Assembly: GCA_963789955.1 (NCBI GenBank)
Contig: CAWBMV010000010.1
Span: forward strand, 1-63,975
Reading direction: 5' to 3'
Length of the DNA stretch: 63,975 nucleotides
Source of the DNA: an uncultured Candidatus Rokubacteria bacterium
Lineage (GTDB): Bacteria; Methylomirabilota; Methylomirabilia; Rokubacteriales; CSP1-6
The notes below the pieces were generated by a model. The model had not been told where the DNA came from and made no database searches. It saw nothing but the letters and a program-made list of their open reading frames with translations. How positions within the stretch are numbered: the first letter of the stretch is position 1; every line of letters begins with the position of its first letter. Made by a program: the position numbers and the translations under genes. Below, in pieces: positions 4,472 to 63,954 of the stretch.

Positions 4472-4509
4472 TGGGGTATTGACGCTCTCGGTGAGGCGGC
4501 TTCGCCTCG
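4472..4509. promoter_or_regulatory. Tandem putative enhancer (UAS) sites
   Basis: TGGGGT-N6-GCTCTC and TGAGGC-N6-GCCTCG, 20-bp period. Confidence 0.55.
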
Positions 4510-4533
4510 CTACGCGACCCCAGGACTCGTCGC

Positions 4534-4978
4534 TCACCGCCCGCGCACGGTCAGGACAGGACACGACGCCAGGCTCACGACTCGGGTCGCGACACTTCCC
4601 AGCAGGACGCGTTCGATGCCGCTCCGGCCATGCGTTCCGATGACGATCATCGACGCGCGTCGCGATCGGGCCGCCCGCGTGATCGTCCCGGCCTCCGAGC
4701 CTTCCATGAGGAGGGCGGTCGCCCGGGCGCCCGCGGCCCTGGCCCGGGCCGTCCATCGCGCCAGCTGTTTCAGCGCCGCAGGCTCGCGAGGCTTGTCGCA
4801 GCTGTGCGTAGGTCGGTGGATCGATGGCGCGGTCGCCGATCATCGGGACCATCGGGTTCAGGACGTGCAGCACCAGGAGCTCGCTCCTGCTTCCTTTCGC
4901 CAGCTCGATCGCCTTGGCGAACGCGGGCCGGGACGCGGACGAGAAGTCGGTCGCGTGGAGGATCGGGCGCTTGGCCAT
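4534..4978 (-). CDS. Universal stress protein; frameshifted
   Basis: ILHATDFSSAS N-terminus; C-terminal CPVLTVR in shifted frame. Confidence 0.85.
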
Positions 4979-4991
4979 TGATGAGCTCTCC

Positions 4992-6174
4992 TCAAATCAC
5001 CTTGTGGGCACGGCCGATTCGCACGAACGCGGCGACGGCCTGCTCGAGATGCGCCGGCTCGTGCGCGGCGCTGATCTGCACGCGGATGCGCGCCGCGTCT
5101 TTCGGGACCACTGGAAAGGAAAAGCCGACCACGTAGATCCCCTCCCGCAGGAGGTCGGCCGCCATCTGGTGCGCGAGCCTGGCGTCGCCCAGCATGATCG
5201 GAACGATCGGATGCTCGCCGGCCCTGATGCTGAAGCCGGCCTCGCTCATGGCGCGGCGAAACCACCGGGTATTCTCCGCGAGCCGCTCGCGGAGAGTGGT
5301 GGTTTCGGACAGCGTCTCCAGGCAGGCCAGCGCCGCGGAGACCAGCGCGGGCGGCAGCGAGTTCGAGAAGAGGTAGGGACGCGAGCGCTGGCGCAACAGC
5401 GCCACGACCTCCCGGCGGCTCGCGGTGAAACCCCCGCTGGCCCCGCCCAGCGCCTTGCCGAGCGTCGAGGTGATGATGTCGACTCGACCGGCGACGCCGC
5501 AATACTCGGGTGTGCCGCGGCCGGTCGGTCCGAAGAACCCGGTGGCGTGACTGTCGTCGACGACGACCAGCGCAGCGTGGCGGTCGGCCAGGTCACAGAT
5601 CGCGGCGAAGCGGGGCCACGTCGCCGTCCATCGAGAAGACGCCATCGGTCACGATCAGACGCGTCCGCGCGCTCCGGGTCTCGGCGAGGACGCGCTCCAG
5701 GTCGGCCATGTCCGCGTGCGCGTAGCGCTGCCGCTGCGCCCGGCAGAGGCGGATGCCGTCGATGATCGAGGCGTGGTTGAGCGCGTCGGAGATGACGACG
5801 TCGTCTTCGTCGAGGAGCGTCTCGAAGAGTCCGCCGTTGGCGTCGAAGCACGACGTGTAGAGGATCGCGTCCTCGACGCCCAGGAAGCGGGCGATCGCCG
5901 CCTCGAGCTGCCGGTGGATGCTCTGGGTTCCGCAGATGAACCGTACGCTCGCCATACCGAAGCCCCAGCGCGCGAGACCATCCTGCGCGGCGCGGATCAG
6001 GCGAGGATCGTCGGCCAGACCGAGGTAGTTGTTGGCGCAGAAGTTCAGCACTTCACGGCCGCCCACCGCGATGCGCGCCGATTGAGGGCTCTCGATGACG
6101 CGCTCGTCCTTCCACAGGCCGGCGTTGCGGATCTCGTCGATCTCTGCCTGGAGCCGCTGCGCGATTGCGTACAT
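4992..6174 (-). CDS. kbl: Glycine C-acetyltransferase (2-amino-3-ketobutyrate CoA ligase); frameshift ~5610
   Basis: [60 protein letters not shown]. Confidence 0.92.
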
Positions 6175-6216
6175 GAGCTCTCTCCCGGGGCGGACGGTGT
6201 CGCCCCCGACGCCCGC

Positions 6217-7242
6217 TCAACCTGGCAGGTCGCGGCGCCTCACATTGGGTAACAGGTATTCGTCGAAGGCGCGGCCCAGGTCGTAGGCGGGCGCGAAGCC
6301 CCAGTCGCGTCTGGCGCGCGTGTCGTCGACGTCCTCGGGCCACGAGTCCACGATGGCCTGCCGGCGCCGATCGGGCGCGAACGTGATCGGCACGCCCGGG
6401 AAAGCCTTACGGACGAGATCGGCCAGCTCGCCGGCGGTCGGGCTGAAGGCCGAGACGTTGTAGACCGAGGAGGTCAGCGCGTCGGAGGGCGCGTGCAGCA
6501 GATCGAGGAGCGCGCTGATCGCGTCCGGCATGACCATGAGCGGGATCCGCGTGTCCTCGCGCACGAAGCACGCGTAGGGCCGCTGCCTCGACGCGGCGTG
6601 GAGCATCTCCGGCGCGTAGTCGCTGGTGCCCCCGCTCGGCGTCGTGAACGCCGAGATCAGGCCGGGAAAGCGAATCGCCCGAAAATCGACGCCCGCCGGC
6701 TGGCTCTGCGGGGCGAGCTGCCGGTAGTGACGGGCGAAATAGCGGCCGAGGTGCTCGCAGTAGAGCTTGCCGCAGCCGTACATGGTGATCGGCGCCAGGC
6801 CCACGTCCTCGGCGACCTTGCCCGCCGCGCGCTTCGCCGAAGGACCCGCAAACCCGTAGACCGCGATCGAGCTCGGGAAGAGGAACTTGACGGGACGCCC
6901 GATCGATCGCGCCTCCTCGACCGCCAGATGGAGGAGGTTCAGCGTGCCCTGCACGTTGACCTCGTGGGCCGTCTCGGGGACGAATTCCGCGCGAGTCGAC
7001 AGGATCGCCGCGAGGTGGAAGACGACGGAGATCTCGAATTCGCCCATCACCCGCTCGAGCAGATGGCGGTCGAGCACGTCGCCCACCACGGTCGTCGCGC
7101 AGCGTCGCGCGAGCTCGGGATCGAGCGGCCTGGCGTCGACGGCCAGGACGTCGAAGGTGCCGAGGTCGGCGAGGCGATGGATCAACCCGTGTCCGATCTC
7201 GCCGTTTGCGCCGGTGACGAGGACCACGGGCTTGCGTGCCAT
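6217..7242 (-). CDS. SDR/GalE-like L-threonine 3-dehydrogenase
   Basis: TGANGEIG, HLAAILS, PSSIAVYG, YGCGK, RFPGLIS, GGTSDYA, SWP; directly upstream of kbl. Confidence 0.8.
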   Translation of the reverse strand: MARKPVVLVTGANGEIGHGLIHRLADLGTFDVLAVDARPLDPELARRCATTVVGDVLDRHLLERVMGEFEISVVFHLAAILSTRAEFVPETAHEVNVQGTLNLLHLAVEEARSIGRPVKFLFPSSIAVYGFAGPSAKRAAGKVAEDVGLAPITMYGCGKLYCEHLGRYFARHYRQLAPQSQPAGVDFRAIRFPGLISAFTTPSGGTSDYAPEMLHAASRQRPYACFVREDTRIPLMVMPDAISALLDLLHAPSDALTSSVYNVSAFSPTAGELADLVRKAFPGVPITFAPDRRRQAIVDSWPEDVDDTRARRDWGFAPAYDLGRAFDEYLLPNVRRRDLPG

Positions 7243-7407
7243 CTCAGCCAGCAGCGTAGTACCGGCGAGTACCGGCTGGCAACGAATGCGTGCGGACCCG
7301 CGCTGCGCGTGGAGCTGCGGCAGGTCCTCACGGGTCGAGCACAAGATTCGCGAGTTTCTCGCAGTTTGTCGTATCGTACGGGCGATGCACGATTCCTGAG
7401 TCACACC

Positions 7408-7521
7408 ATGCACGCCCACAAGCTCGGGCTCGTACTGACGGCCTTCATCGGAGGCTGGCACCTCGTCTGGCGTGGCGCGGCGCGGATGACCGTCGGCACG
7501 AACCGAGTCTCGATCCTCTGA
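7408..7521 (+). pseudogene. Short ORF, possible stub of a small membrane protein
   Basis: MHAHKLGLVLTAFIGGWHLVW hydrophobic start; stop overlaps next ATG. Confidence 0.25.
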
Positions 7522-7787
7522 TGGCGAAGACGCGCGGTCTCGCGAGCGAGTTTCGCCGACGGCTCGCCGCGGCTCGGCGATATCTCTTGCGGGCGGTAAC
7601 CACCGGCAGCCGTCCGCAGGGGAAGCGAGCGCTCCGCGAGCTCGCCGCGGCCGAGGCACGGATCGATGCCGGCATCTACGGGTTGTGCGAATCGTGCAGC
7701 CGACCGATCTCGCTCGCGCGACTCCGGGTTTCGCCCACGACGCGACGATGCACGCGGTGCGCCGGCGCCCGGCGGCGGCGCTCGTGA
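7521..7787 (+). CDS. TraR/DksA C4-type zinc-finger protein (short)
   Basis: AEARIDAGIYGLCESCSRPISLARL...CTRC. Confidence 0.75.
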   Translation: MAKTRGLASEFRRRLAAARRYLLRAVTTGSRPQGKRALRELAAAEARIDAGIYGLCESCSRPISLARLRVSPTTRRCTRCAGARRRRS

Positions 7788-9114: not shown

Positions 9115-9158
9115 GCGCTATAGCTCCCTTTGGTCAAGCGTGCCCCGAGCATACCGCG

Positions 9159-9966: not shown

Positions 9967-10004
9967 CCGGGAACCTCCGCCTCAAGTGGGACACCCGCGC
10001 CCCA
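9967..10004. promoter_or_regulatory. Tandem putative enhancer (UAS) sites
   Basis: CCGGGA-N6-GCCTCA and TGGGAC-N6-GCCCCA, 20-bp period. Confidence 0.6.
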
Positions 10005-10068: not shown

Positions 10069-10084
10069 TGGCACTTCGGTTGCT
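10069..10084 (+). promoter_or_regulatory. sigma-54 promoter of hsp20-CBS-CBS-groEL-ABC unit
   Basis: TGGCACTTCGGTTGCT, consensus match. Confidence 0.8.
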
Positions 10085-10218
10085 CACTCGAGCTGCCGAC
10101 GATCACGCCGGGGGAGGAGGTGTCTGGCGTACGAGGTGTGGCGTTGCCCGGTGGCGACGCGTGATCGCGCGGAGGCTGAGTGACCGAGAGGAAATCACAA
10201 GAATCAGGAGGAAGAATC

Positions 10219-17034: not shown

Positions 17035-17050
17035 AGCAACCGCGCTGCCA
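17035..17050 (-). promoter_or_regulatory. sigma-54 promoter
   Basis: TGGCAGCGCGGTTGCT. Confidence 0.7.
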
Positions 17051-17112: not shown

Positions 17113-17149
17113 TGTGGCGGCGACGCCTCACTGAGGCGCCGGCGCTTCA
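17113..17149. promoter_or_regulatory. Tandem putative enhancer (UAS) sites
   Basis: TGTGGC-N6-GCCTCA and TGAGGC-N6-GCTTCA, 19-bp period. Confidence 0.6.
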
Positions 17150-18292: not shown

Positions 18293-18330
18293 TGGGGATT
18301 TGCCGCCGCACGTGGGGCGGCCACGCCGCC
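18293..18330. promoter_or_regulatory. Tandem putative enhancer (UAS) sites
   Basis: TGGGGA-N6-GCCGCA and TGGGGC-N6-GCCGCC, 20-bp period. Confidence 0.55.
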
Positions 18331-23439: not shown

Positions 23440-24619
23440 GTTCGTCATGCCGATCCTCGGCGCCGACATGACGGCGGGCACCTTGGTCGCGTGGCGCAAA
23501 CAGCCAGGCGACCGCGTCAACCGCGGCGACATCATCGCCGAGGTCGAGACCGAGAAGGGCCTGATCGACGTCGAGGTCTTCGCGAGCGGCGTGCTCGAGC
23601 GCATCATCGTGGCGCCTGGAGCCACCGTGCCGACCGGAACGGTTCTGGCGCTCATCCACGAGGACGGGCCGGCCGCCGCCGCCCCAGCGATGGCTGCGCG
23701 ACCGATACTTGCGGCGCCGTCGGCCGCGCGGCCGCCGGTGCCACCGTCCGCTCCGCCGCCGCTCGGTGGTACGCCGGCGCCACGCGTGCGCGTCACGCCG
23801 CTCGCGCGGCAAGCGGCCGCCCGGCTCGGCGTCGACCTGGCCACCGTGACCGGCACGGGCCCGGGCGGTGCGGTGAGGCTCGAGGATGTCGAGGGCGCCG
23901 CGGCCCGCGCCGGGGCTGCGGCCGGGCCTGCAGCGCCGGGGCGGTCCCGCCTCGATTCAAGCCGCATGCGGCAGACCATCGCGGCCGCGATGGCGCGGGC
24001 CAAGCGCGAGATCCCGCACTACTATCTGGCGCATACGATGAACATGCACCGCGCCCTCGATTGGCTCGCCGGCGAGAACGTGCGGCGCCCCGTGACCGAG
24101 CGCCTCCTGCCCAACGTGCTCTTGCTGAAGGCCGTCGCCCTCGCCGTGCGCGAGGTGCCCGAGCTGAACGGGGTGTGGCGCGACGGCCGCATGGAGCCGA
24201 GCGCGCGCGTCCATCTTGGCGTCGCGATCTCGCTCCGCGGCGGGGGACTCGTCGCGCCGGCCATCCACGACGTGGATCGCATGACGATCGGCGAGCTGAT
24301 GCGATCTCTGCGCGACCTCGTCCAGCGTGCGCGCACGGGTGGCCTTCGCAGCTCCGAGCTGTCGGATCCCACGATCACCGTCACCAGTCTTGGCGAACAG
24401 GGGGTCGAGACCGTGTTCGGCATCGTGTACCCGCCGCAAGTCGCGATCGTCGGGTTCGGTCGCATCGGGGAGCGCCCCTGGGTCGTCGACGGCACCGTCG
24501 TCGCCCGGCCGGTCGTGACCGCAGCGCTGTCCGCCGACCACCGCGTCAGCGATGGCCACCGCGGCGGCCTCTTCCTCGTCGCGGTCGAGCGCCTGCTGCA
24601 GGCGCCGGAGCGGCTGTGA
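23432..24619 (+). CDS. pdhC: Dihydrolipoamide acetyltransferase E2
   Basis: Lipoyl VETEKG, peripheral-subunit-binding GTGPGG, catalytic DHRVSDG. Confidence 0.9.
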
Positions 24620-28279: not shown

Positions 28280-28295
28280 TGCAACGACGCTGCCA
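28280..28295 (-). promoter_or_regulatory. sigma-54 promoter of repeat protein-FBPase-BON unit
   Basis: TGGCAGCGTCGTTGCA. Confidence 0.75.
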
Positions 28296-28395: not shown

Positions 28396-28433
28396 TGAGG
28401 CGAGAGCGGGACAACAGGGGCGGCGATGCCCCG
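28396..28433. promoter_or_regulatory. Tandem putative enhancer sites between divergent promoters
   Basis: TGAGGC-N6-GGGACA and AGGGGC-N6-GCCCCG, 20-bp period. Confidence 0.55.
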
Positions 28434-29829: not shown

Positions 29830-31026
29830 TCAGCAGACCGGGTACTCGCCGCGTGCGAGCTGCGCCCGGAACTCCGTCAGTCGTCCGAGCTCGCCCTCCA
29901 CGACGTCTCGCACGCTCGTCGCGATGTCCGACAGGATCATGTCCTTGGGCAAGACCATCTGGATGCCCGTCCACGGCTGGTCCACGGGCTCGCCGATCCG
30001 CGCCGCCAGGTGCACGTAGACTTGAGGAAGCTCTGGATGCCGGGTGTGGATCAAGCCGGCGAGACGATGGCTCAACACGCTGTAGATTTTGCCGGCGTGC
30101 GCCACGGCATTTTTCCCGGGTGCTGCCTCGCCCCCCGAGGGACGGGAAAAGGCGATCAGGCCGTTGGCGCCGTTTCCGCGCCCAACCTCGCCCGAGTCGG
30201 CATCCTCGGCCGATGTCCCCGTGATCGTCATGTACACTCCGTCGGCACCCGCGCCCGGCCTGTCGAGGTTGTTCAGCCGGAACGACGAGCTGCAGTGGAG
30301 CGTCGCGGAAGCGCTCGTCGAGTGCCGCCAAGATCTCCTGCTTGCGCCGGAAGTAGACGCCCTCCGACGCGACGGCGCGGCACAGAGCGGCATCGCGACG
30401 GTCACGTCGAGGCGATCGTCCTCGCGGAGCCCGAAGACCTTCACGTCTTGTCCGGTGTCCGGGAACCGGCGCTTGAACTCCGTCCCGTTCAGGAACTGCT
30501 CCACCGCCAGCACGATCTGCTCCGTGGGGCTCAAAGGGGCGTAGCCGGAAGCCCCGGACGTATCGTTGGAGGCGACCGGACCCGACCGCCGGCCCGAAGA
30601 TTCCGCGGAGCTCGGCGGAGCCCGGCGCCAGCGCGATGCGGGTTTCGAGGTCCCGCCCGGCGCGCACGTGGGGCAGGTGGGCGACGGTCCACGCGTCACC
30701 GCCGCGCGCACCGTCTTCTCGACGGGTAGTCGCCGCCCGTCGACCTCGAACGTCGCCCGGTCTCCGAGAATGAGCTCCATCGGACGAGTCACCTCGCCCC
30801 GTCCGAAGCCCGTCACGCACTGGCCGGCAACAAGCATTGCCTTGTCGACGTTGTAGTGCTGGACGCTCCCGACCTCGGCCAGGTACATGCGGTTGAGCGC
30901 GACGGCGACCGCCTCGGCCAGGGAGTCGCAGATGGTGTCGGGATGGCCGAGACCCTTTCGCTCGACCAGCTCGATCCGCCGCTGCGCGACCGGCACTTCG
31001 GCGAGAGCCTCGATCACGGTCTTCAC
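29830..31026 (-). CDS. Archaeal-type S-adenosylmethionine synthetase; compensating frameshifts
   Basis: ELVERKGLGHPDTICD, HYNVDK, NDTS, GQDVKV, GTSAEDADSGEVGRGN, GKNAVAHAGKIY. Confidence 0.88.
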   Translation of the reverse strand: MKTVIEALAEVPVAQRRIELVERKGLGHPDTICDSLAEAVAVALNRMYLAEVGSVQHYNVDKAMLVAGQCVTGFGRGEVTRPMELILGDRATFEVDGRRLPVEKTVRAAVTRGPSPTCPTCAPGGTSKPASRWRRAPPSSAESSGRRSGPVASNDTSGASGYAPLSPTEQIVLAVEQFLNGTEFKRRFPDTGQDVKVFGLREDDRLDVTVAMPLCAAPSRRRASTSGASRRSWRHSTSASATLHCSSSFRLNNLDRPGAGADGVYMTITGTSAEDADSGEVGRGNGANGLIAFSRPSGGEAAPGKNAVAHAGKIYSVLSHRLAGLIHTRHPELPQVYVHLAARIGEPVDQPWTGIQMVLPKDMILSDIATSVRDVVEGELGRLTEFRAQLARGEYPVC

Positions 31027-31704
31027 TCGATCGGTCTCCGGGGGCCAGCCCTCCTTGCCGATGAGCGGAACGAACGCGACATCCTCGAGCTCCTCACGAC
31101 GGTAGTCGTCGGGACGAGTCCGGGTCAGGCGGACCAACCGCTGGCCGAGCCGCCAGTTGCCGACCGGCATCACGAGGCGCCCGCCGACAGCGAGCTGGGC
31201 CATGAGGGACGAGGGCACCTCGGGGCCGCCGGCCGTGACGATGATCACGTCGTAGGGCGCATGCTCGGGCCAGCCCAGGGTCCCGTTGGCTTCACGCACG
31301 TGGACGTTCCGGTAGCCGAGCTTGGCCAACTGCCGGCGCGCGGACTGCGTCAGACTCGGCAGGCGCTCGATCGTGTAGACCTCGGCGACGATCGTCGCGA
31401 GCACCGCCGCGGAGTATCCCGAGCCGGCACCGATCTCGAGGGCGCGATCGCCGGTCTTCGGCTGGACGGCCTCGATCATCGCCGCGACGATGTACGGCTG
31501 CGAGATCGTCTGGCCCTCACCGATCGGGAGCGGTTCGTCGTCGTAGGCCGATCGCGCCTGGCTGGCGGGGACGAAGGCGTGGCGCGGCACCTTCCGCATC
31601 GCCGCCAAAACCGCCGGGTTCCGCACGCCGCGTCGAGCGATTTGAAGTTCCACCATTCCATGACGTTCGCGAACAAAATCCGTCGATGCTGATACCGTTC
31701 GCAT
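31027..31704 (-). CDS. pcm: Protein-L-isoaspartate O-methyltransferase
   Basis: VPRHAF, GQTISQPYIVA, LEIGAGSGY, APYDVIIVTA, FVPL; GGAGG RBS. Confidence 0.9.
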
Positions 31705-32372
31705 CTTCGCTTCCTCCAGGAGGTGCGCGGCGTGATCGCGCGCACGCCGGCTGATCGCCCTCTGCGCGGCCGAACCCACTTCGACCAGCAGCTCGGATCG
31801 GCCTGAGCTCGCCTGCTGCGGCGGCGTGTTGGGCGAGTGAATGAAGCGGCGCTCGACAAGCGCCACGACGGCCTCCGCCGCCCCCGCGATATCCTGGGCG
31901 GTCGTGTCGATGATCAGCTCGGGAGCCAGCGCGACTTCATACTCGACGTTGACCCCGGGCACGCGGGCACCGGCCTGCGTTGCGCCGGCGTAGATGCCGG
32001 GCGGGGCCGCGCCTCGCGGCCGCGCCGCTTCGCGCTCCCGACATACGGCCAGTGGACACACCAGCTGCACCTCAGCAAAGCTCGACAGCGCCGCCCGCGC
32101 GAGATCGCGCCACGCGCGTCGGTGAGCCGTGGCGTCGAAGATCACGGGAATGCCCGAGTCGACCAGCGTCGCGCCGATATAGACCAGCGCGCGGTACACG
32201 GCCTCGCGCTCGGCGTCACAGTACGTGGGCACGGGCGTGATGACCCGGCGGATCTCGTCGAGCTCGAGCACGACCACGTCTCTCCACGCGAGCAGAGCTC
32301 CTTCGCCGCTGCTCGCGCGATAACGGACTTGCCGCTACCGGGCAAACCGGTGATCCAGATCGCCCAGCTCAT
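31705..32372 (-). CDS. Adenylylsulfate-kinase-like P-loop kinase; frameshift ~32285; in frame with pcm
   Basis: WAIWITGLPGSGKS, ELDEIR, FDATAHRR, CPL, VPGVNVEYE. Confidence 0.75.
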
Positions 32373-32474: not shown

Positions 32475-32490
32475 CGCAAGGTCGATGCCA
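32475..32490 (-). promoter_or_regulatory. sigma-54 promoter of kinase-pcm-MAT-IMPase unit
   Basis: TGGCATCGACCTTGCG. Confidence 0.72.
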
Positions 32491-32542: not shown

Positions 32543-32579
32543 TGGGAGATGGCCGCCCACGTGAGGCACCAACGCCGCG
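32543..32579. promoter_or_regulatory. Tandem putative enhancer sites between divergent promoters
   Basis: TGGGAG-N6-GCCCAC and TGAGGC-N6-GCCGCG. Confidence 0.5.
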
Positions 32580-32653: not shown

Positions 32654-32669
32654 TGGCATCGACGATGCA
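32654..32669 (+). promoter_or_regulatory. sigma-54 promoter
   Basis: TGGCATCGACGATGCA. Confidence 0.65.
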
Positions 32670-33358: not shown

Positions 33359-34784
33359 GGATACAGCGCGCGCAGGTACGGAATGCCGAGGCCCAGGAGC
33401 GTGACCAGAAAGATCAACCCGAATATCGATCCGAGGCCCCGAGAATTCCTTGCGCGTGATGTACCCGCTCGCGAAGTAGATCGGGGCCGCCCCCGTCGCG
33501 TACGGAGTCAGGACACCCATCAGCCCCAGCCCGTAGCAGAGAAGCAGTGAAGCTTGCTTGATCGGCAGGTCGGGCGTGGCGGCCATCGAGGCCACGAACA
33601 CCGGCAGGAACGCGGTCGTGTGGGCCGTGAGGCTCGCGAACATGTAGTGGCTCACGAAGAACACGACGACGATGACGACCGTCTTCACCACGACCGGCGT
33701 CTGGCCGAGTTGACGCCACGGACTCCCCGGCGAACCATTTCAAGAAGCCCACTCGATTCAACCCGTCTGCGAGCGTGACCAATGTCGCGAACCAGGTCAA
33801 TGCGTTCCAGGCGGGCCCGTGGGCGAGGACATCGTCCCATCGGATGACACGGGCGAGGAGCATCAGGCAAAGGGTGAGGGACGCGGTCGTGACGTTCATC
33901 CATTCGGCGGCAGACACCCAGAGCGACAGCGCGAACAGAGCCAGGAGCGCCATGAGCATCTCGGGGTGCGTCACCCGCCCCCATCCGGTCGAGCTCCTGG
34001 CGTGCCGATTGGAACCTCTGGACTCGTCTTCACCGTGGGAGGATAGAGGGCGTAGACGAGCGCCGGAAGAAGGGTGAAGAGGACGAGCCCTATCGGCAGG
34101 AATCGACGAACCAGTCCGACCACGTGATGGTCACGCCGGCGAGCTCCTGAGCATCGAGCGGGCCAGTAGATTGGGCGTGAATGCCGTGAGGAACATCGAG
34201 CTCGTGGACGCACGTCGTTCCGAAGGCCGTCCACATCAGATAGGCGCCGATGCGCCGCGCGGTCTTGCCCGGCGATGAGCCGTAGAGCGGCGGAATGCTC
34301 TCGATGATCGGGAAAATTATTCCCGCGCTCCGGGCCGTGTTCGACGGCGTGAGAGGTGCCAGGGCGAGATCCGCCAACGCGACGGCATATCCGAGACCGA
34401 GGGTTCGCCCGCCGAGGCGCTGAACCAGCGTCAGAGCGATTCGACGTCCCAGCCCCGTGGCCTGATAGCCGAGCGCGAACATGAAGACGACGAGCATGAG
34501 CCATACCGTGCTGTCGGCGAAGCCGGCGGTGCCCAGCGGATCGATTCGGTCGGTCGGGGCAACCAGGAGAAGCGTCGCCGCCGTCGTGACGGCCACGAGT
34601 CCGACCACCGGGCCCGGGAGTGGCTCGGTGATGAGCGCCGCGACCGCGGCGACGACCAGCCCGAAGTAATACCAGGCGTTCGCCGTCAGCTCCGCCGGAA
34701 CAGGCGCCAGCGCGACGGCCGATCCCCAGCAGCAAAGGCCCCGACCGCTCGCCAGATCTTCTTCATCAAGCGGATTGTGGTCAT
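33352..34784 (-). CDS. DASS-family di/tricarboxylate transporter (CitT-like); many frameshifts
   Basis: TGLGRRIAL, PSNTARSAG, WFATL, HYMFASLTAH, GVLTPYATG. Confidence 0.8.
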
Positions 34785-34985: not shown

Positions 34986-37401
34986 ATGCGCAATGTGAAT
35001 GCCAGTCAGCTCCGAGCGGCCTGCGATCCGTCGACCCTGGGGTTTCAGTCCACTGATGATCTGCCGGCCCTGGACGGCATGATCGGCCAGGAGCGGGCCG
35101 TCAGCGCGACGAAGTTCGGTATCGGGGTGAAGCACATCGGCTACAACCTGTTCGTCCTCGGTCCTCCTGCCACCGGAAAGACCTCGACCATGCAGCGGCT
35201 TCTTGCCAAGGCCGCCGAGGGCGAGCCCACCGCCGCCGATTCTGCTACGTGCACAACTTCCGAGATCCCTACCGGCCGACGGCGCTCGAGGTTCCGGCGG
35301 GGCGCGGTCGGGCGCTCCAACGCCAGATGACCGAGCTCGTCGAGGAATGCAAGGTCAAGCTGCCGCGGGCGTTCGAGGGCGAAGAATTCGAGCGTCAGAA
35401 GTCGCAGATCCTCGACGACCTCCGACACCGTCAGGAGGCGGAGATCGGGCGGCTCGAAGACCGGGCTCGCTCCGCGGGGTTCGTCGTCTTGCGGACACCC
35501 GCGGGGCTGGCGGTCGCGCCGGCGCCGAGGGGACGGCCCTGAGCCACGAGGAATTCAGTGCGCTGCCGGCGGCCGCTCAGAAGAGGCTCACGGACGGCGC
35601 CGAGGAGCTCCAGCCGCACGTGGACGTGACGCTCCGACAGCTACGGCAGCTCGAGCGCGATGCGGCCCAGTCGCACGAGAAGCTCGTGCGCGAGATCGCA
35701 GCGGCGGTGACCCGCCACCTGATCGGCGAGCTCCGCGACGAGTTTGCCGGGCTCGACTCCGTCCAGCGGTACCTCGACGAGGTCGAGAACGATTTGATCG
35801 CCCACGCGGAGGAGTTCCGGGGCTCGGCCGAGGGCAAGCCGGTGCTGCCGTTCCTGCCGCCGCCCGGAGCCTTTCTCGACCGTTATCGCGTGAACGTCCT
35901 CCTGGACCGCAGTCAGGATCGGGGCGCCCCGGTCGTGTTCGAATCGAATCCGACGCACGGGAACCTCCTCGGAAAGATCGAGCATCGCGCGCACTTCGGC
36001 ACGCTCGTCACGGACTTCACGCTCATCAGGCCGGGAGCGTTGCATCGCGCCAACGGCGGGTATCTCATTCTCGAAGCGAAGGACGTCCTCCGGAACTTCG
36101 TGGCATGGGAGTCTCTCAAGAAGGCACTGAAGAGTCGCCTCATCCGGATCGAGGAGCCGCTCGAGGAGTTCCGTCTGGTCGCGACGGCGAGCCTGGCGCC
36201 CGAGCCGACCCCGCTCTCGGTCAAGGTCGTGCTCATCGGGAGTCCGCTGTTCTACTATCTGCTCTACAACCTCGACGAGGATTTCGGCGAGCTCTTCAAG
36301 GTCAAGGTCGATTTCGACGATTCGTTCGAGCGTACGCGCGAAACCGAGCGGCTCTACGCGCGTTTCGTCGCCGGCGCGTGCCGCGAGCACGGGCTCAAGC
36401 CCTTCTCGGCGGACGGCATCGCGAAGCTGATCGAGCACGGCTCCCGCATGGTCGCTCATCAGCAGCGGCTCAGCTCCCGGCTTGGAGCGCTGCTCGACGT
36501 CGTTCGCGACGCCGAGTTCTATGCGGGCGAGCGCGGGAACGCCCGGGTCACCGGCGACGATGTCGCGCACGCCATCGCTCAGAAGATCTTCCGGTCGAAC
36601 CTCATCGAGGAGCGTGTCGGGCGGATGATCGCGGAAGGCTCGTTGCTGATCGCGACCGACGGCGAGGTAGTGGGACAGCTGAACGGGATCTCCGTGCTGT
36701 CCACGGGGGACCACGCCTTCGGCCGCCCGTCGCGCATCACGGTGCGCACGTACAGCGGCGAGCCCGGTGTCGTCGACATCGAGCGTGAGTCGAAGCTCGG
36801 CGGTCGCATCCACTCGAAGGGCGTCATGATCCTGACGGGATTTCTCGCCGGGCGCTACGCACGCGAGAAACCCCTGGCGCTGTCGGCGTCGGTCACGTTC
36901 GAGCAGCAGTACGAAGAGGTGGAGGGAGACAGCGCGTCATGCGCCGAGCTGTTGGCGCTGCTGTCGAGTCTCGCCGGGATCCCGCTGTCGCAGTCGATCG
37001 CGGTGACGGGTTCGGTGAACCAGCGCGGCGAGATCCAGCCGGTGGGCGCGGTCAACGAGAAGATCGAAGGCTTCTTCGACGTCTGCCGAGCGCGCGGGCT
37101 CACCGGCCGCCAGGGCATGTTGATCCCGGAGACGAACTTGCGCCATCTGATGCTCCGCGAGGACGTCGTGGACGCCGTTCGGCAGGGGACGTTTCACATC
37201 CATGCGGCCTCTACGGTCGATGAAGGCCTCGAGATCCTCTCGGGGCGTCCGGCCGGCGAGCGGAGCGAGCCCGGCACGCCGTTCCCGCCCGGAAGCTTCA
37301 ACGCAGCGGTCGAGCAGACGCTGGCCGAGAATCTTGACCGCCTGAAGGCGCTCCGGACGAACTCGCACCCGGCCGTGCCCGCGCGAAGTGGTTCGGGCTG
37401 A
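34986..37401 (+). CDS. Lon-like (S16, LonB/LonC-type) AAA protease; frameshifts near 5' end
   Basis: IGQERA, GPPATGKT, PGALHRANGGYL, FKVKVDF, EGDSAS Ser and NEKIEGFF Lys dyad. Confidence 0.88.
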
Positions 37402-40294: not shown

Positions 40295-40310
40295 GGCAAA
40301 TGCGATGCCC
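40295..40310 (-). promoter_or_regulatory. sigma-54 promoter
   Basis: GGGCATCGCATTTGCC. Confidence 0.6.
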
Positions 40311-40362: not shown

Positions 40363-40400
40363 TTGGTCGTCCGCGCCTCATGTGGGACACGGGAGCCCCA
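40363..40400. promoter_or_regulatory. Tandem putative enhancer sites between divergent promoters
   Basis: TTGGTC-N6-GCCTCA and TGGGAC-N6-GCCCCA, 20-bp period. Confidence 0.6.
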
Positions 40401-40466: not shown

Positions 40467-40482
40467 TGGCATCGCCTTTGCG
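40467..40482 (+). promoter_or_regulatory. sigma-54 promoter
   Basis: TGGCATCGCCTTTGCG. Confidence 0.72.
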
Positions 40483-40497: not shown

Positions 40498-41311
40498 ATG
40501 GCAAGCCTGGCGGTGACAGCGCTCTTCACGGGCGAACCTGCGCTCGTCGGGCCCGAGGGTCTCGACTGTGCCGGCGATTCTCGGAGCACTGAGCCTGGAC
40601 TCTGCGCGGCCGCCGCCGGCATCGATCCCGACAAGCTCAGGACTGCTCGCGAGCTCAAAGCCGCCTATCCCTTCGACTCGTTCCGCAAGCGCATGACCCT
40701 GGTGCGCGGCGCCGACGCCGAGACCGTCGCGTACGTGAAGGGAGCGCCCAGGGAGACCCTGGCACTGTGCGACCAAATCCGCTGGGGCGACCGAACCGTG
40801 GCGCTCACCGACGAGACGCGTCGCAAAGTGCTGGCCGATCACGACCGTCTGGCCGGCGACGGGCTGCGCCTTCTGGCCGTGGCGTCGCGGCCGGTCGGCC
40901 GGGAGCTCGCCGGCGCGCCGCAAGGCACGGTGGAGCGAGACCTGATCTTCCTGGGACTGATCGCGCTCTGGGATCCGCCCCGCGCCGAAGTTGCCGAGGC
41001 GATCGCGTATCGGCGCGCCACCACGGATGACGTTCGCCGCGATCGTCGCCGCACAGGTCGGAAACGTGTTTGCGTGCCGGACCGATCGCCAGTCGGTGTT
41101 CAGCGTCGGCTTGACGGAAAACCGGATGGTGTTCGTCGGCGTGGCGGCCGAGGTCGCCATCCTGCTCGGCTTGATTCTGCTACCACCGCTTCGGCACGTC
41201 TTCGGCCTGGCGCCTCTCTCGTTCTCGGAGTGGGGGATCTTACTGCTGTTCGCGCCGACGATCCTGCTTCTCGACGAGGTTCGGAAGGGCTTGCTCCGTC
41301 GGCTCAGATAG
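40498..41311 (+). pseudogene. Internally deleted cation-transporting P-type ATPase
   Basis: PFDSFRKRM, KGAP, GLRLLAVA, DPPR, then a direct jump to C-terminal QVGNVFACR..DEVRK; no DKTGT or GDGxND. Confidence 0.75.
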
Positions 41312-41345
41312 GGCGGGAGCGCCCCAGTGTCGCGCGTTCGCCGCA
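41309..41345. promoter_or_regulatory. Tandem putative enhancer sites
   Basis: TAGGGC-N6-GCCCCA and TGTCGC-N6-GCCGCA. Confidence 0.45.
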
Positions 41346-41419: not shown

Positions 41420-41435
41420 TGGCAACGACGTTGCA
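41420..41435 (+). promoter_or_regulatory. sigma-54 promoter
   Basis: TGGCAACGACGTTGCA. Confidence 0.75.
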
Positions 41436-42567: not shown

Positions 42568-42606
42568 TGGGGCGTGGCCGCCGCAACGCGGGGCACTCAG
42601 GCCTCA
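42568..42606. promoter_or_regulatory. Tandem putative enhancer sites
   Basis: TGGGGC-N6-GCCGCA and CGGGGC-N6-GCCTCA, 21-bp period. Confidence 0.6.
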
Positions 42607-42669: not shown

Positions 42670-42685
42670 CGGCACTCATCTTGCT
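42670..42685 (+). promoter_or_regulatory. sigma-54 promoter
   Basis: CGGCACTCATCTTGCT. Confidence 0.7.
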
Positions 42686-43151: not shown

Positions 43152-44405
43152 TCAGTTGCGCTCGTTCGACACCGCCGGAAACGCCAGGGCGAACGTGGTT
43201 CCGCGTCCCGGCATGGACTGCACGTCGACGGTGCCACGGTGATCCTGGATGATGCCGTAGCTCACCGACAGGCCGAGCCCGGTGCCCGATCGCTTGGTCG
43301 TGTAGAAGGGGTCGAAGACTTTGGAAAGCTCCTCGGCGGAGATCCCGGGGCCCGTGTCGGCGATGACCATCCGCACCCAGCCGGCGCGCTCCGGGGCCGC
43401 ACCCGTCTCGATGCGGATCTCGCCGCCGCTTCCCATCGCCTCGCGCGCGTTGGTAACCAGGTTCAGCAGCACTTGCTGCAAGGTGCTCGCATCGCCCATG
43501 ATCGGCGGGAGCGCGGGCTCCAGGCTGGTAAGGAGCCTGATGTTATCGATCTCGAGAGGCTTCTGCATCAGCGCGAGCGTCTCCTGGACGACCGCGTTCA
43601 GATCGACCGGCGCGTGCTCGCGAGGCGCCTGACGCGCGAAGGATCGAAGGTTGGTGGCGATTCGCGCGACCCGCTGCGTCGCTCGATGAAGAACCCTGAG
43701 ATCCTCGAGTACCTGCGTGGGCACGTTGAGCTCTTCGGCGTCGAGCAGCATGACCTCGATCCGGGATGTGATGATCCCGAGGGGGTTGTTCATCTCGTGG
43801 GCGATGCCGGCGGACAGCGTGCCGAGCGCCGCGAGCTTTTCCGTCTGATAGAGCGTTTCCCGCTGTTGGCGCAGCTCGGCTTCGACGCGCTTGCGCTCGG
43901 TGATGTCCGTGATGAGGGCCATCGCGGTCATCCCCTCGGGGGCCTGCACGTAGCTGAGGCTGATCTCGACGGGGAACTCCGCGCCGTCCTTCCGGCGTCC
44001 GGCCAGGGCGAGCCCGCTGCCCATGGGCCGGACGCGCGGCCCGGCGAAGTAGCCGGCTCGATGCTCGCGATGCCCCGCGCGAATGCGGTCGGGCAGCAGG
44101 ATCTCGAGCGTCTGGCCCAGGAGCTCGTCGTGGTCATAGCCGAACATGCGCTCGGCGGCCGCGTTGACGAGGATGATCCGCCCGCTCGCGTTGATCAGCA
44201 GAATGCCCTCGGAGGCCGACTCGAGGACGGCCTGAGCCGTGGCTTCGCTCGTTCGCAGCGCCGCGTCAGAGACCAGCACCTCCTTCAGGAGTCGCTGCTC
44301 GGTCCGTCCTTGCTCGATGGCAGCGGTTTCGAGCGCCGCCACCTGCCGGCGCAACGTACTCATTTCCGCCAGGAGCTCTTCACGGGTTTTCCCGGCGTCG
44401 CTCAT
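43152..44405 (-). CDS. Cytoplasmic PAS-domain sensor histidine kinase (FixL/DosP-like PAS)
   Basis: NAAAERMFGY, LPDRIRAGH, GRRKDGAEFPVEISLS; AHEMNNPL H-box; N, G1, F and G2 boxes. Confidence 0.92.
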   Translation of the reverse strand: MSDAGKTREELLAEMSTLRRQVAALETAAIEQGRTEQRLLKEVLVSDAALRTSEATAQAVLESASEGILLINASGRIILVNAAAERMFGYDHDELLGQTLEILLPDRIRAGHREHRAGYFAGPRVRPMGSGLALAGRRKDGAEFPVEISLSYVQAPEGMTAMALITDITERKRVEAELRQQRETLYQTEKLAALGTLSAGIAHEMNNPLGIITSRIEVMLLDAEELNVPTQVLEDLRVLHRATQRVARIATNLRSFARQAPREHAPVDLNAVVQETLALMQKPLEIDNIRLLTSLEPALPPIMGDASTLQQVLLNLVTNAREAMGSGGEIRIETGAAPERAGWVRMVIADTGPGISAEELSKVFDPFYTTKRSGTGLGLSVSYGIIQDHRGTVDVQSMPGRGTTFALAFPAVSNERN

Positions 44406-44704: not shown

Positions 44705-46351
44705 ATGCGATCGGATCTCCTGCGCGTGATTGCCGACCGGCTCGCCGGTCGAATCGGCGGAGCCTCGACGCTGGCGCTCCCGCTGCTGCGCGCTCTCGCA
44801 ATGATCGCGCTCGTGGTGTGGCTCGGGCTCGCGCCGGATGAATACCGACAAGCGAACGCGCTCGTCCTCACCGTTGTCGGCTTTCTGCTGTACAGCCTCG
44901 CCGTCGAGGCCGCGCTCTGGTGGCGACCGTCGGCCACCCTTCGGCTCAACTTCTACGTGCTCTTGATCGACCAGCTGTTCGCGCTCACGCTCATCTATCT
45001 CACGGGCGGTGCGCGAAACTCCTTCTATCTGGCGCTCCCGTTGATCGCGGGGCTCCAGGCGTACTACTATGGTCTTCGCCGGGGCGTCGCGGTTGCCCTC
45101 GTCTCGGCGGCGGTCTACGTCGTCCTCGTCTGGCCGACGATCGAAACGGTCGACGTGGCCAACCTCTCCACCCGGATCATCGTGCTGCTGGGTGCGGCGA
45201 TCAGCGTCGGGCTCGTGGCGAGCGCCCAGGAGCGTGAGCGCCGGCGTGTGGCGGCGCTCACGAGCGCCGCGGGGGAGCGGGACCGGTACATCCGGAACGT
45301 GATGGAGAGCCTGCGCGAAGGCCTCATCGGGCTCGATCGCGAGGGCCGCATCACGGCCTGGAGCCCCGCGATGGAACGATGGTGTGGAGTCTCGGAGCGC
45401 GACCTGGCCGGCCGGACCCTGTTCGACGTGAACCCGAACCTCAAGCGCGAGACCCTCGCCGAGCCGCTGCAGCGACTGTTGCGCGGCGAGATCGACGGCT
45501 TCAAGCTGGACGCCGTCGAGCACGAAACACTTCGTGGAGACCACGTCGCGTGGAACGTGAGCGCCAGCCTCCTTCGCCAGGCCGGTCTGCCGGCGGGCGC
45601 CGTGCTGCTGATCGAGGACATCACCGAGCGCCGCGGCCTGGAGCGGGCGGCCAAGCAATCGGAGAAGCTCGCCGCCCTCGGTACGCTCGCCGCCGGTCTG
45701 GCGCACGAGCTGAACAATCCGATCGGAATCATCTCGACGCGCGCCGAGCTCATGCTGCTCGATGCGGAGTCCAAGAGCTTGCCGGATGACCTGGCCGAAG
45801 ACCTGCGGGTCATCCACCGGCACTCGCAGCGCGTGGCACGGATCATCCAGGGCCTCTTGTCGTTTGCTCGTTCGCCGTCCGGCCAGGCCGGACGCGTCGA
45901 CTTGAATCGTGTCGTCGACGAGACGCTCTTGCTCGTCGAGAAGACGATCGTCAAGGACGGCGTCCGGGTCCGGCGCGCTCTGACGCCGCGACTTGCCGAT
46001 GATCTGGGGCGACGCCAGCGCCCTGCAGCAGGTCGTGGTGAACCTCCTCACCAACGCGCGCGATGCCGTGCGGACCGGCGGCGAGATCTTCATCGAGACT
46101 CGTGCCGCAGCCGAGCCGCCCGGCAGCGTGCAGCTGGTCGTCCGCGATACGGGATCGGGGATTCCGCCCGAGGTCCTGGCCAAGATCTTTGACCCGTTCT
46201 TCACGACCAAGGCCGAAGGGACCGGGCTCGGGTTGTCGATCACCTACGGTATCGTGCGCGATCATCGAGGCACGGTCGACGTGCGATCAGCGCCGGGCGA
46301 GGGTACGACGTTCGTCCTGACCTTCCGCGGTGCTCGGCCAGGAGATCTGGC

Positions 46352-46355
<4 letters not shown>
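44705..46355 (+). CDS. Membrane-bound PAS sensor histidine kinase; frameshift ~45990
   Basis: N-terminal TM bundle, PAS, AHELNNPI, NLLTNARDA, DTGSG, GTGLGLS. Confidence 0.9.
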
Positions 46356-47755
<1,400 letters not shown>

Positions 47756-47764: not shown

Positions 47765-47802
47765 CGGGGCAGCGATGTCCCACCCGAGGCTCGAGGTCCC
47801 CA
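47765..47802. promoter_or_regulatory. Tandem putative enhancer sites
   Basis: CGGGGC-N6-GTCCCA and CGAGGC-N6-TCCCCA, 20-bp period. Confidence 0.6.
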
Positions 47803-47856: not shown

Positions 47857-47872
47857 TGGCATCCGCGTTGCT
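47857..47872 (+). promoter_or_regulatory. sigma-54 promoter
   Basis: TGGCATCCGCGTTGCT. Confidence 0.78.
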
Positions 47873-53050: not shown

Positions 53051-53066
53051 TGCAACGGCTATGCCT
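53051..53066 (-). promoter_or_regulatory. sigma-54 promoter
   Basis: AGGCATAGCCGTTGCA. Confidence 0.65.
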
Positions 53067-53141: not shown

Positions 53142-53180
53142 TGGGGCACCGCCGCCCGCGGGCGGGACGTCGATGCCTCA
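53142..53180. promoter_or_regulatory. Tandem putative enhancer sites between divergent promoters
   Basis: TGGGGC-N6-GCCCGC and CGGGAC-N6-GCCTCA. Confidence 0.55.
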
Positions 53181-53232: not shown

Positions 53233-53248
53233 TGGCAGCCACATTGCA
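53233..53248 (+). promoter_or_regulatory. sigma-54 promoter
   Basis: TGGCAGCCACATTGCA. Confidence 0.75.
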
Positions 53249-56082: not shown

Positions 56083-56119
56083 TGGGACCGCTGCGCACCG
56101 CTGGGGCGGCAATGCCACA
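56083..56119. promoter_or_regulatory. Tandem putative enhancer sites
   Basis: TGGGAC-N6-GCACCG and TGGGGC-N6-GCCACA, 19-bp period. Confidence 0.6.
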
Positions 56120-56182: not shown

Positions 56183-56198
56183 TGGCACCACGGTTGCC
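56183..56198 (+). promoter_or_regulatory. sigma-54 promoter
   Basis: TGGCACCACGGTTGCC. Confidence 0.75.
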
Positions 56199-61473: not shown

Positions 61474-61489
61474 GAGGAGACGCTACGTC

Positions 61490-62056: not shown

Positions 62057-62059
62057 CTG

Positions 62060-63397
62060 CTAGCGGGGCCGAGCGGGAAGGCGCTCCAGCCACTCGTCGA
62101 CGCAGCCGCCGAGGCCCGGGCTGGCGGTCTCCGCGAACTCGTATCTGGCCCGGACGACCGGCTTGTCGATCGCGATCAGGCGGGCGAGATCGACCGGCGT
62201 GGCAGCGACGACGACGTCGACGTCCACGCGCGCGATCGTCGTCTGGAGGGCGTCGAGCTGCTCACGGCTGTAGCCGACGGCGGGCAGGACCGGTCCGATA
62301 TGCGGATACCGCGAAAACACGGCCTCGAGGGCGGGCGCCGACGCCGATCGCGGGTCGACCACGATCGCGCCGATCGCGGTTGCCGCGACGAATCCGGCAC
62401 CGTGGGGCATCTGCCCGTGCGTGATGGTCGGGCCGTCCTCGATGACGAGCGCGCGTCGTCCTCGGACCGCGGCCGGATCATCGAGGCGGACCGGTGAAGC
62501 CGCCTGCACGAGTCGGCGCCGCGGTCATTCACCGCGCGGGCCGAGGCGATCGCGCGCTCCACCTGCTCGCCGGAGGCGGTGTCGACCTTGTTGACCACGA
62601 TGACGTCGGCCGTGCGGAGGACGGCCTCGCCCGGATGATAGCCGCGCGCGTCGTCCGGACGGAGCGCGTCCACGACGACGATGTGCAGATCGGGTCGCAG
62701 GAACGGGAAGTCGTTGTTGCCGCCGTCCCAGACGATCACGTCGGCTTCCGACGCCGCGCTGGCCGGCGATGCGGGCGTAGTCGACGCCGGCGAACACGAG
62801 GTTGCCGGCCGCGAGGTGCGGCTCGTACTCCTCTCGCTCCTCGATCGTGCATGCGGCGGCATCGAGGTCGGCCAGCGTCTCGAAGCGCTGCACCCGCTGA
62901 CGCTCGAGATCCGCGTACGGCATCGGGTGGCGCAGCACCGCGACCCGAAGGCCACGCGCCCGCAGTTTCGCGCCCAGCCATCGGGCGATCGCCGATTTGC
63001 CGCAACCGGTTCGCACGGCCGAGACCGCGACGACCGGCACCGCGGCCTGGAGCATCGTCCGCTCGGGACCCAGCAGCACGAAGTCGGCGCCGGCGGCGAG
63101 AGCGCGCGAGGCGATACGCATCACGTGGGCGTGGGAGACGTCGCTGTAGGCGAAGACCACCTGCGTCACCTGGTGGCGGCGGCAGAGGATTTCGAGCTCC
63201 GACTCGTCCTCGATCGGGATACCGGCCGGATACCGGGGGCCTGCGAGGGCGGCGGGGTACCGGCGTCCCGCGATACCGGGGATCTGCGTCGCCGTGAACG
63301 CGACGACCGTGACCGCGGGCTCATCGCGATACACGACGTTGAAGTTGTGGAAGTCGCGCCCGGCGGCACCGAGGATCACGACTCGTTCGTGCGTCAT
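62060..63397 (-). CDS. COG2403 P-loop protein (cyclic 2,3-diphosphoglycerate synthetase-like family); frameshifted
   Basis: GAAGRDFHNFN, FAYSD, AVRTGCGKS, RHPMPY, TIEEREEYEPH, WDGGNND, EDGPTITHG. Confidence 0.82.
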
Positions 63398-63799
63398 CTT
63401 GTCTCTCCCATCCGGCGGCGGAGCGTCTTGCGCATCGCGCCGGCCGACGTCGTCACGAGCATCGCGAGGCCGAGACCGAGCGCGGCGACGATGCTCGTCA
63501 CGCCGGCGTGCAACAGGAGCCACGCGCAGAGCAGGAAGGCGACCGACGGGATCAGGATCTCCGCCACGCGTGTCCCGCCGCTTGCCGCCGTGCGCTGCCG
63601 CGCGGCGAGCCAGGGGAGACGGCCGTTCACGAACAGGAACGAGACGAGCACGACGGCGTCAGTCATCGCCGCGACCTGTCGAAGGGTCCCGAGCATGACG
63701 AGCACGGCGAGTGTAGACTCCGGCTCCGAGGATGAGCCCGACGCCTGACAGCGAGACCTGCCAGAGAGCGAGCGATCGACGAAGTGAAGTGGAGGCCAC
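63394..63799 (-). pseudogene. Internally deleted APC-family amino acid permease
   Basis: N-terminus MASTSLRRSLALWQVSLSGVGLILGAGVY (TM1) joined near 63712 to C-terminal helices; GGAGG RBS. Confidence 0.65.
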
Positions 63800-63827
63800 G
63801 TCGCTCTAAATCCTCCCGTTCGGGTTC

Positions 63828-63843
63828 AGCAACGGCAATGCCA
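63828..63843 (-). promoter_or_regulatory. sigma-54 promoter
   Basis: TGGCATTGCCGTTGCT. Confidence 0.75.
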
Positions 63844-63917
63844 GTGCTCAGCGCGATCCCAACCGCACAATATTCGCTCGTGATCTGAGAACGGGCCGAG
63901 CCGAGGGCCGCGTTGGG

Positions 63918-63954
63918 CGGGGCAGACGCGTCCCACAGGGGTACCGTCGCCTCA
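63918..63954. promoter_or_regulatory. Tandem putative enhancer sites
   Basis: CGGGGC-N6-GTCCCA and AGGGGT-N6-GCCTCA, 19-bp period. Confidence 0.6.

Follow-up and report, generated by a model that had tools for sequence, protein, structure and literature searches.

A family of tandem 18-bp palindromes recurs upstream of predicted sigma-54 promoters in the window (the whole stretch of 63,975 nucleotides analysed here, contig CAWBMV010000010.1 of a Rokubacteria genome), and these palindromes are very probably the binding sites of the NtrC-family bacterial enhancer-binding protein (bEBP) encoded within it at 46352-47755, an assignment made from sequence comparison. The overall reading, held with nearly as much confidence, is that this activator would bind the palindrome pairs as upstream activating sequences (UAS) and switch on an island of stress genes, probably under low oxygen. 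UAS pairs for this regulator had been proposed in an earlier reading made from the letters of the window alone (the sequence-only reading), and the proposal gains support from the helical phase of the pairs relative to the promoter, from the co-occurrence of regulator and sites across relatives, and from the way the sites follow the recognition helix. The window makes up contig C10 of a genome of 6.8 Mb (68% GC, 87% complete), and its gene content is that of an island for universal stress proteins (USPs), CBS proteins, Hsp20 and acetate kinase; the closest named homologues of the regulator belong to Rokubacteria/Methylomirabilota.

Palindrome pairs and their geometry

The element is best described as YGRGGC-N6-GCCYCR, arranged in tandem with a period mostly of 19-20 bp. 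The sequence-only reading had written it with a final A; the palindrome is real, and the four examples quoted (at 9987, 40383, 47765 and 63918) are all present, but the literal pattern fits only seven sites and the consensus is therefore looser. The form YGRGRC-N6-GYCYCR has 8 matches in the window against 1.43 expected, a count reached in none of 100 shuffles; one of them, at 23937 inside the pyruvate dehydrogenase E2 gene, has no partner and is probably due to chance. De novo palindromic expectation maximisation on 14 merged promoter-upstream regions returned an 18-bp motif, tGgGGC-N6-GCCcCa, with a log-likelihood of 87 compared with 32-59 in 12 Markov controls. Odd motif widths score lower, and the same procedure on the promoters of relatives returns the same motif.

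Individual loci were scored with a matrix learned on relatives' promoters, which reaches at least 4 bits at 0.15% of background positions, and a copy was counted at 5 bits or more. At 11 of the 13 loci listed in the sequence-only reading there are two palindromes of at least 5 bits each, and the other two have one strong copy with a decayed partner; all 14 window pairs scoring at least 12 fall at these loci and none elsewhere in the window. Among the 96 of 137 UAS promoters with a partner copy, the period is 19 bp (40 promoters), 20 bp (38), 21 bp (7) or 22 bp (3). The range thus reaches 22 bp, beyond the proposed 19-21 bp, and the idea that both dimers occupy the same DNA face is only approximate because the period is slightly under two helical turns. 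In relatives the half-sites are kept while flanks diverge, and the N6 spacer is fixed in length and free in sequence. In many pairs the weaker of the two copies carries a variant half-site, TGTCCC/GGGACA, in place of TGGGGC; this variant recurs at 28396 in the window and in loci L042-L058 of two relatives (G040, G034).

Promoters were located with a sigma-54 matrix derived from 63 strict intergenic sites lying outside the window. Inside the window it picks out 23 sites, 17 of which flank the 13 loci (Table 1). Genome-wide, 21 of 535 sigma-54 candidates have a pair within 150 bp, compared with none for the reversed matrix and 0-2 for five permuted matrices. Fourteen of these are in the window, four on contig C7 and one each on C15, C34 and C37, and the genome-wide scan suggested in the sequence-only reading accordingly places the pairs mainly in the window and in an island on C7. 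In a genome of 68% GC, weaker pairs do arise by chance, and the palindromes might be GC-rich chance hairpins or terminator-like repeats without a protein partner. The shuffle and permuted-matrix controls, the fixed N6 with free spacer sequence, the helical phase described below and the conserved half-sites between diverging flanks make this extremely improbable.

Distances from the last palindrome base to the T of TGG in the -24 box cluster near 53, 64, 75 and 86 bp, a 10.5-bp phase. For 24 promoters of this genome the phase test gives R=0.70 (p ~8e-6, 10.5-bp period), in each of the eight genomes tested the mean phase falls at 9.8-0.7 bp modulo 10.5, and the pooled R is 0.53 over 129 promoters, among which orthologous promoters are non-independent. 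With the T of TGG taken as position -26, the near palindrome of the commonest layout is centred at about -87. A positional bias toward the -24 element is therefore present, with the periodicity of the helix. The pairs do not, as had been claimed, lie roughly midway between divergent promoters, since only 4 of the 13 loci are divergent and their pairs are off-centre (distances in Table 1). Divergent promoters share one pair, with most distances on either side near phase; the 101 bp at 28295 is the clearest exception.

A second element, resembling a site for integration host factor (IHF), lies between the UAS and the promoter. UAS-bearing promoters show A/T peaks at -29 to -27 and -20 to -17 relative to the T of TGG, and matches to the IHF consensus with at most two mismatches are present at 35 of the 137 UAS promoters, compared with 5 of the 105 other sigma-54 sites (200 shuffles: mean 6.3, maximum 13), with 18 of the 35 matches starting at -29 or -30. 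IhfA and IhfB are both encoded in the genome and score above the NCBIfam cut-offs, and IHF-assisted looping is described as standard for bEBPs (PMC7175178; PMC3045617). Lying some 55-43 bp upstream of the start, the element would likely bend the loop between activator and polymerase, and bending there would explain the phase constraint. Less favourable to this picture, just 5 of the 18 promoters of the window have the element with no more than two mismatches, and its central TT is poorly retained. Because the IHF match is degenerate, the AT element may instead be an intrinsic bend made by two A/T patches 10 bp apart; the peaks one turn apart and the weak central TT would suit such a bend, which is nevertheless the less likely explanation given that the position of the element is fixed, that most matches are on the same strand and that ihfA and ihfB are present.

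Other occurrences of the same arrangement are found elsewhere in the genome. The second island (C7:7900-37200) has UAS pairs at 10145, 12053, 21583, 22820, 29441 and 37132 and genes for RtcB, a PRK00407-like protein that is presumably archease, Hsp20, USP, NAD synthetase and RbbA, together with a further PAS protein with a heme signature at 31589. A satellite cluster of USP and Hsp20 genes at C34:1116900-1121300 has a strong pair and promoter beside a dihydroorotate-dehydrogenase-like gene, and a UAS-like pair at C34:1220151, with no detectable sigma-54 site, lies beside genes with LuxR-type and CRP-type helix-turn-helix (HTH) domains. On C37 a duplicated segment repeats one UAS pair with its weak promoter, at 34501 and again 13 kb away at 47689.

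The activator and its link to the palindromes

The regulator carries GAFTGA and the recognition helix DRKTFH, and no other DNA-binding regulator is encoded by the 95 window open reading frames (ORFs) scanned. It does not reach the NCBIfam equivalog cut-offs for NtrC, AtoC, GlrR, NtrX or ZraR (best scores: AtoC 460 against 714, NtrC 424 against 559). The genome encodes about 30 bEBPs, so proximity alone proves little, and the assignment depends instead on comparison between genomes. An HTH search of 40 relatives separates 23 with an orthologue (at least 53 bits) from the rest (at most 35 bits), and a strict composite pattern of motif-N40-66-promoter is likewise found in 23; a looser junction pattern, which matched 37 of 41 genomes and gave no discrimination, was set aside in its favour. 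Regulator and composite occur together in 22 relatives and neither occurs in 16, with one discordant genome of each kind (agreement 38/40), and all 16 relatives that lack both have zero composite sites. For the bEBP nearest the C7 island, profiled as a control in the same relatives, the corresponding counts are 11, 2, 15 and 12, the opposite profile, with agreement in only 13 of 40. The regulon marker is carried by 3 of 16 same-genus relatives.

The recognition helix provides a further measure. Across 80 homologous loci from several phyla, a UAS and promoter lie beside 21 of the 32 loci with a DRKT(F/L/I)H helix and beside none of the 48 with other helices. Among members outside Rokubacteria (Binatota and others), a pair accompanies 7 of 38 sigma-54 sites compared with 0 of 68 near other bEBPs, in a set of which 2 of 15 loci had been found by the pattern. 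In a quick tree, with an orthologue standing in for the frameshifted window regulator, 38 DRKT proteins form one clade (Shimodaira-Hasegawa-like approximate likelihood ratio test 100) separate from 18 further bEBPs of the genome and from 18 bEBPs beside protoglobin kinases.

Several points weigh against the assignment and the reading built on it. The regulator gene is itself frameshifted and split over several frames in this assembly. Orthologues in relatives are intact, and related-strain contigs, of low depth and from other strains, lack single bases at 46454, 47102-47108 and 47514; on these grounds assembly error is likelier than pseudogene decay, though not proven. The relatives-trained matrix derives from promoters chosen with the window matrix and is partly circular, and phasing is individually significant in only 4 of the 8 genomes. 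Outside Rokubacteria the strict composite pattern occurs in only 3 of 10 genomes with the clade (0 of 5 negatives). Because the island is gained or lost as a block, co-occurrence does not single out the regulator from its other genes, kin are non-independent, some loci of the helix comparison come from the same genomes as the relatives (e.g., L063 is G002), and one rival bEBP was profiled among about 30 others.

These points bear most directly on the idea that the palindromes are genuine UAS elements read by another bEBP, the local regulator only travelling with the island. The number of bEBPs in the genome would allow it, no UAS pair precedes the window's kinase-regulator operon, and in one relative, the 79% complete G019, a composite site was found but no regulator was detected. 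It is nonetheless a decidedly improbable explanation in view of the opposite profile of the bEBP nearest the C7 island, the zero composite sites in relatives that lack both, the passage of the motif with the DRKT helix into other phyla with different neighbour genes, and the lack of a close HTH paralogue of the regulator in this genome. The 46352 activator is therefore retained as the predicted reader of the palindromes. In another family of Rokubacteria, represented by G040, a UAS promoter precedes an AAA_33 gene and then the regulator gene (L043:8832-11850), a layout that suggests positive autoregulation, which is not evident in the window.

Target genes, kinases and the predicted signal

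The predicted targets in the window encode USPs, CBS proteins, Hsp20, GroEL, acetate kinase, phosphate acyltransferase, 2-oxoacid dehydrogenase subunits, fructose bisphosphatase (FBPase), a Lon-like protease and P-type ATPases, and this gene set recurs in relatives. By analogy with established bEBP biology, two activator dimers would occupy each pair, become phosphorylated on the receiver Asp and then oligomerise, and the oligomer would reach sigma-54 polymerase over a short loop. Two kinase genes lie ahead of the regulator, that of the soluble kinase in divergent orientation. Oxygen or redox input may be read by the soluble kinase at 43152-44405 through a predicted heme-PAS domain, and the membrane kinase at 44705 may be a second input in this regulator family; both assignments are weaker than that of the binding site. 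The predicted output, including RtcB, RbbA and P-type ATPases, resembles the lxa and DosR low-oxygen gene sets.

The PAS domain of the soluble kinase has its best PDB hits in FG214 (10JX), FixL and DosP. In FG214 numbering His156, His159 and Met172 are conserved, and His156 aligns with the matching FixL His. As these three residues are kept and His175 is absent, the domain is predicted to bind heme b with His/Met ligation. For this PAS domain, a model made with AlphaFold from the single sequence had a predicted local distance difference test score of 54 and was not used. The corresponding His-x2-His...Arg-x-Met-Gly signature occurs at 15 places in 14 sequences examined (the window and loci), including Binatota-type loci, and a signature-bearing kinase lies near the regulator in a second Rokubacteria family. 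Counting against the heme assignment, neither the distal His175 of FG214 nor the position of the distal Arg known for its role in FixL is conserved. Moreover, in several relatives (e.g., G002, G020, G027) no close heme-PAS kinase was found beside the regulator, and the best kinase match there at E<=1e-30 is membrane-type. As the signature is not beside the regulator in every relative, an oxygen or redox step is likely rather than shown.

Since the soluble kinase is predicted to bind heme, low oxygen or redox is the favoured signal, with fair rather than strong confidence. A less probable alternative keeps the regulator and supposes that the membrane kinase reports general energy, envelope or stationary-phase stress. 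It draws on the fact that, in this family, the kinase gene overlapping that of the regulator encodes a membrane PAS kinase without the heme signature, on the broad range of stresses answered by USP, CBS and Hsp20 genes, and on the absence from the window of an NmpR or TTGA-N6-TCAA box. The only protoglobin in this 87% complete genome is, in addition, a stand-alone protein of 193 amino acids encoded off the island on another contig. Against it stand the recurrence of the heme-signature PAS kinase beside the regulator in the second Rokubacteria family and in Binatota-type loci, and the overlap in gene content with the lxa and DosR sets, which are experimentally induced by low oxygen (PMC3721108). 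Low oxygen or redox thus remains the preferred signal.

Table 1. Predicted regulatory elements and signalling genes of the window; distances run from the palindrome to the T of TGG.
Feature	Position	Strand	Remarks
UAS	4472..4509		Strong copy 4492-4509, decayed partner 4472; 66 bp from - strand promoter 4426 (MBL-fold, rhodanese genes)
UAS triple	9967..10023		Copies 9967, 9987, 10006; before promoter 10069 (Hsp20, CBS, GroEL genes)
UAS pair	17113..17149		Period 19; 63 bp from - strand promoter 17050
UAS pair	18293..18330		Period 20; 53 bp before promoter 18383
UAS pair	28396..28433		Between divergent promoters 28295(-) and 28519(+), 101/86 bp
UAS	32543..32579		Strong copy 32562, weak copy 32543; between divergent 32490(-) and 32654(+), 53/75 bp
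UAS pair	40363..40400		Between divergent promoters 40310(-) and 40467(+), 53/67 bp
UAS pair	41309..41345		75 bp before promoter 41420 (two USP genes)
UAS pair	42568..42606		Period 21; 64 bp before promoter 42670
UAS pair	47765..47802		Directly downstream of regulator; 55 bp before promoter 47857 (USP, CBS, REC genes)
UAS pair	53142..53180		Between divergent promoters 53066(-) and 53233(+), 76/53 bp
UAS pair	56083..56119		64 bp before promoter 56183 (biotin ligase-like, USP, CBS, P-type ATPase)
UAS pair	63918..63954		75 bp from - strand promoter 63843
Sigma-54 -24/-12 site	4412..4426	-	Matrix scan
Sigma-54 -24/-12 site	10069..10083	+	Matrix scan
Sigma-54 -24/-12 site	17036..17050	-	Matrix scan
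Sigma-54 -24/-12 site, weak score	18383..18397	+	Matrix scan
Sigma-54 -24/-12 site	28281..28295	-	IHF-like element with 2 mismatches upstream
Sigma-54 -24/-12 site, weak score	28519..28533	+	Matrix scan
Sigma-54 -24/-12 site	32476..32490	-	Matrix scan
Sigma-54 -24/-12 site	32654..32668	+	Matrix scan
Sigma-54 -24/-12 site	40296..40310	-	Matrix scan
Sigma-54 -24/-12 site	40467..40481	+	IHF-like element, 1 mismatch, 42 bp upstream
Sigma-54 -24/-12 site	41420..41434	+	Matrix scan
Sigma-54 -24/-12 site	42670..42684	+	Matrix scan
Sigma-54 -24/-12 site	47857..47871	+	Matrix scan
Sigma-54 -24/-12 site	53052..53066	-	IHF-like element, 2 mismatches, 42 bp upstream
Sigma-54 -24/-12 site	53233..53247	+	IHF-like element, 2 mismatches, 29 bp upstream
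Sigma-54 -24/-12 site	56183..56197	+	IHF-like element, 2 mismatches, 30 bp upstream
Sigma-54 -24/-12 site	63829..63843	-	Matrix scan
Soluble PAS histidine kinase	43152..44405	-	PAS closest to FG214, FixL, DosP heme-PAS domains
Membrane PAS histidine kinase	44705..46355	+	3' end overlaps bEBP start; frameshifted in assembly
NtrC-family bEBP	46352..47755	+	REC, sigma-54 activator/AAA+, AAA-lid and HTH_8 (Fis-type) domains in different frames

Several promoters precede identifiable gene sets. Promoter 18383 faces genes for a CBS protein, a DksA-like protein, an AMP-binding enzyme, 2-oxoacid dehydrogenase E1/E2, acyl carrier protein and OsmC, while the divergent promoters around the pair at 53142 precede genes for phosphate acyltransferase and acetate kinase (53066, - strand) and DUF6335, USP and cytochrome c (53233, + strand). 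A palindrome with a -24/-12 box also occurs at the place equivalent to 47765 in several orthologous loci. Promoter 40467 faces only cation P-type ATPase fragments (40498-41311), apparently a deletion remnant that kept its promoter. Behind promoter 32490, a single frame (29830-32277) combines APS-kinase-like, protein-L-isoaspartate methyltransferase and archaeal-type SAM synthetase domains and is either a fusion or a frameshift artefact. The strong sigma-54 site at 34990-35004 (score 19), before a sodium:sulfate-symporter-like gene, has no UAS pair near it and may be driven by another activator. Single-base frameshifts split many genes between 4238 and 63705 (GroEL, AMP-binding enzyme, FBPase, the 44705 kinase and the bEBP), and the median called ORF in the window is 185 amino acids compared with about 250 on most contigs; these frameshifts are probably assembly error. 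No Rfam families or tRNA genes were found in the window.

Comparison with known systems

The closest functional parallel is Myxococcus xanthus NmpR, an NtrC-like activator with two dyad sites per promoter, a sigma-54 requirement, a heme-containing kinase and demonstrated hypoxic induction (PMC11841059). The likeness extends to activator type, paired dyads, sigma-54 and CBS, USP and P-type ATPase targets. The NmpR site, in contrast, is GCGCA-N5-TGCGC, of 15 bp with a preferred gap of 14-15 bp, and no such box occurs in the window; its regulon comprises 23 genes behind 7 promoters, compared with at least 21 promoters in the present genome; and its sensor is the protoglobin kinase NmpU in a phosphorelay (PMC11841059), which is absent from this island. 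The window regulator was also rejected as an NmpR orthologue by phylogeny, as the 18 Myxococcota bEBPs beside protoglobin kinases that served as NmpR proxies fall outside the DRKT clade. Ten of these (L205-L214) share an IS(V/Q)RK(V/I)QY helix, with GCGCA-N5-TGCGC boxes in 7 of the 10 regions, and another 7 form a clade with a different helix. The system would work like any bEBP enhancer and most like NmpR, but departs from NmpR in its site, its sensor and its phylogenetic position.

Other bEBP sites resemble the palindromes in layout. The Desulfovibrio vulgaris DVU0539/DVU0946 and DVU1419 sites, validated by electrophoretic mobility shift assay (TGCAAA-N6-TTTGCA and TGTGCA-N6-TGCACA), are likewise 18 bp long, starting in TG and ending in CA with an N6 spacer and repeats at about 19-29 bp, and differ in half-site core (TGRGGC here) and in their small regulons (PMC3333781); DVU0539/0946 was rejected as the source of the motif because its consensus is different. 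GlrR (QseF) at glmY/glmZ also uses 18-bp sites (TGTC-N10-GACA) and an IHF-dependent sigma-54 promoter, with sites more than 100 bp upstream that control small RNA genes (PMC3045617), and the orthologue scores 381 on the GlrR model against a cut-off of 763. NmpR, GlrR, FNR-type and DVU1419 boxes, and the DVU0539/0946 consensus, have no exact match in the window.

In gene content the island is closest to low-oxygen programmes of other regulatory types. DosR of Mycobacterium tuberculosis is a LuxR-type regulator. The DosR and Burkholderia cenocepacia lxa systems cluster genes for USPs, alpha-crystallin, a cation ATPase and related proteins serving survival without oxygen, and lxa similarly repeats one motif at many intergenic points, 17 in all (PMC3721108). 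That motif is an Anr/Fnr-like TGA-N6-TCA (PMC3721108), whereas sigma-54 and a bEBP are employed here, with no TTGA-N6-TCAA box in the window and no CRP-family ORF among the 95 scanned. The soluble kinase, whose PAS domain has its best structural matches in FG214, FixL and EcDosP (10.64898/2026.03.15.711900), keeps the proximal His and the FG214 Met172 position. It differs in that His175 of FG214 is replaced and that its predicted partner is a bEBP rather than FixJ, and on the FixL model its score is 185, below the cut-off of 850.

No description of the motif, or of a Rokubacteria/Binatota sigma-54 regulon, was found in the titles and abstract openings searched or by a term search of PMC12316311. 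A wider proposal is advanced tentatively, with doubt slightly outweighing belief: Rokubacteria and Binatota may share a bEBP clade that runs a low-oxygen dormancy programme on the scale of DosR and lxa, from at least 20 promoters, entirely via sigma-54 and through a His/Met heme-PAS kinase, having arisen independently of the NmpR, Fnr/Anr and DosR systems; UAS, IHF site and promoter would keep a fixed short-loop geometry, and the island would be missing from many genus members. For an abundant uncultured lineage of soil bacteria, the analysis names a precise predicted binding site together with the regulator, a candidate sensor and a list of targets. It also supplies a sequence marker for genomes carrying the predicted anoxia-survival programme, and more than 130 natural promoters with one geometry as a useful set for sigma-54 enhancer spacing rules. 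The activation mechanism is ordinary, a sigma-54 hypoxia regulon has precedent in NmpR, and the 18-bp TG..N6..CA layout with repeats at about 20 bp is already known from DVU0539/0946; to these the present analysis adds a phase rule for the pairs, an IHF-like element, tests on presence/absence and on the recognition helix, and a candidate heme-PAS sensor.

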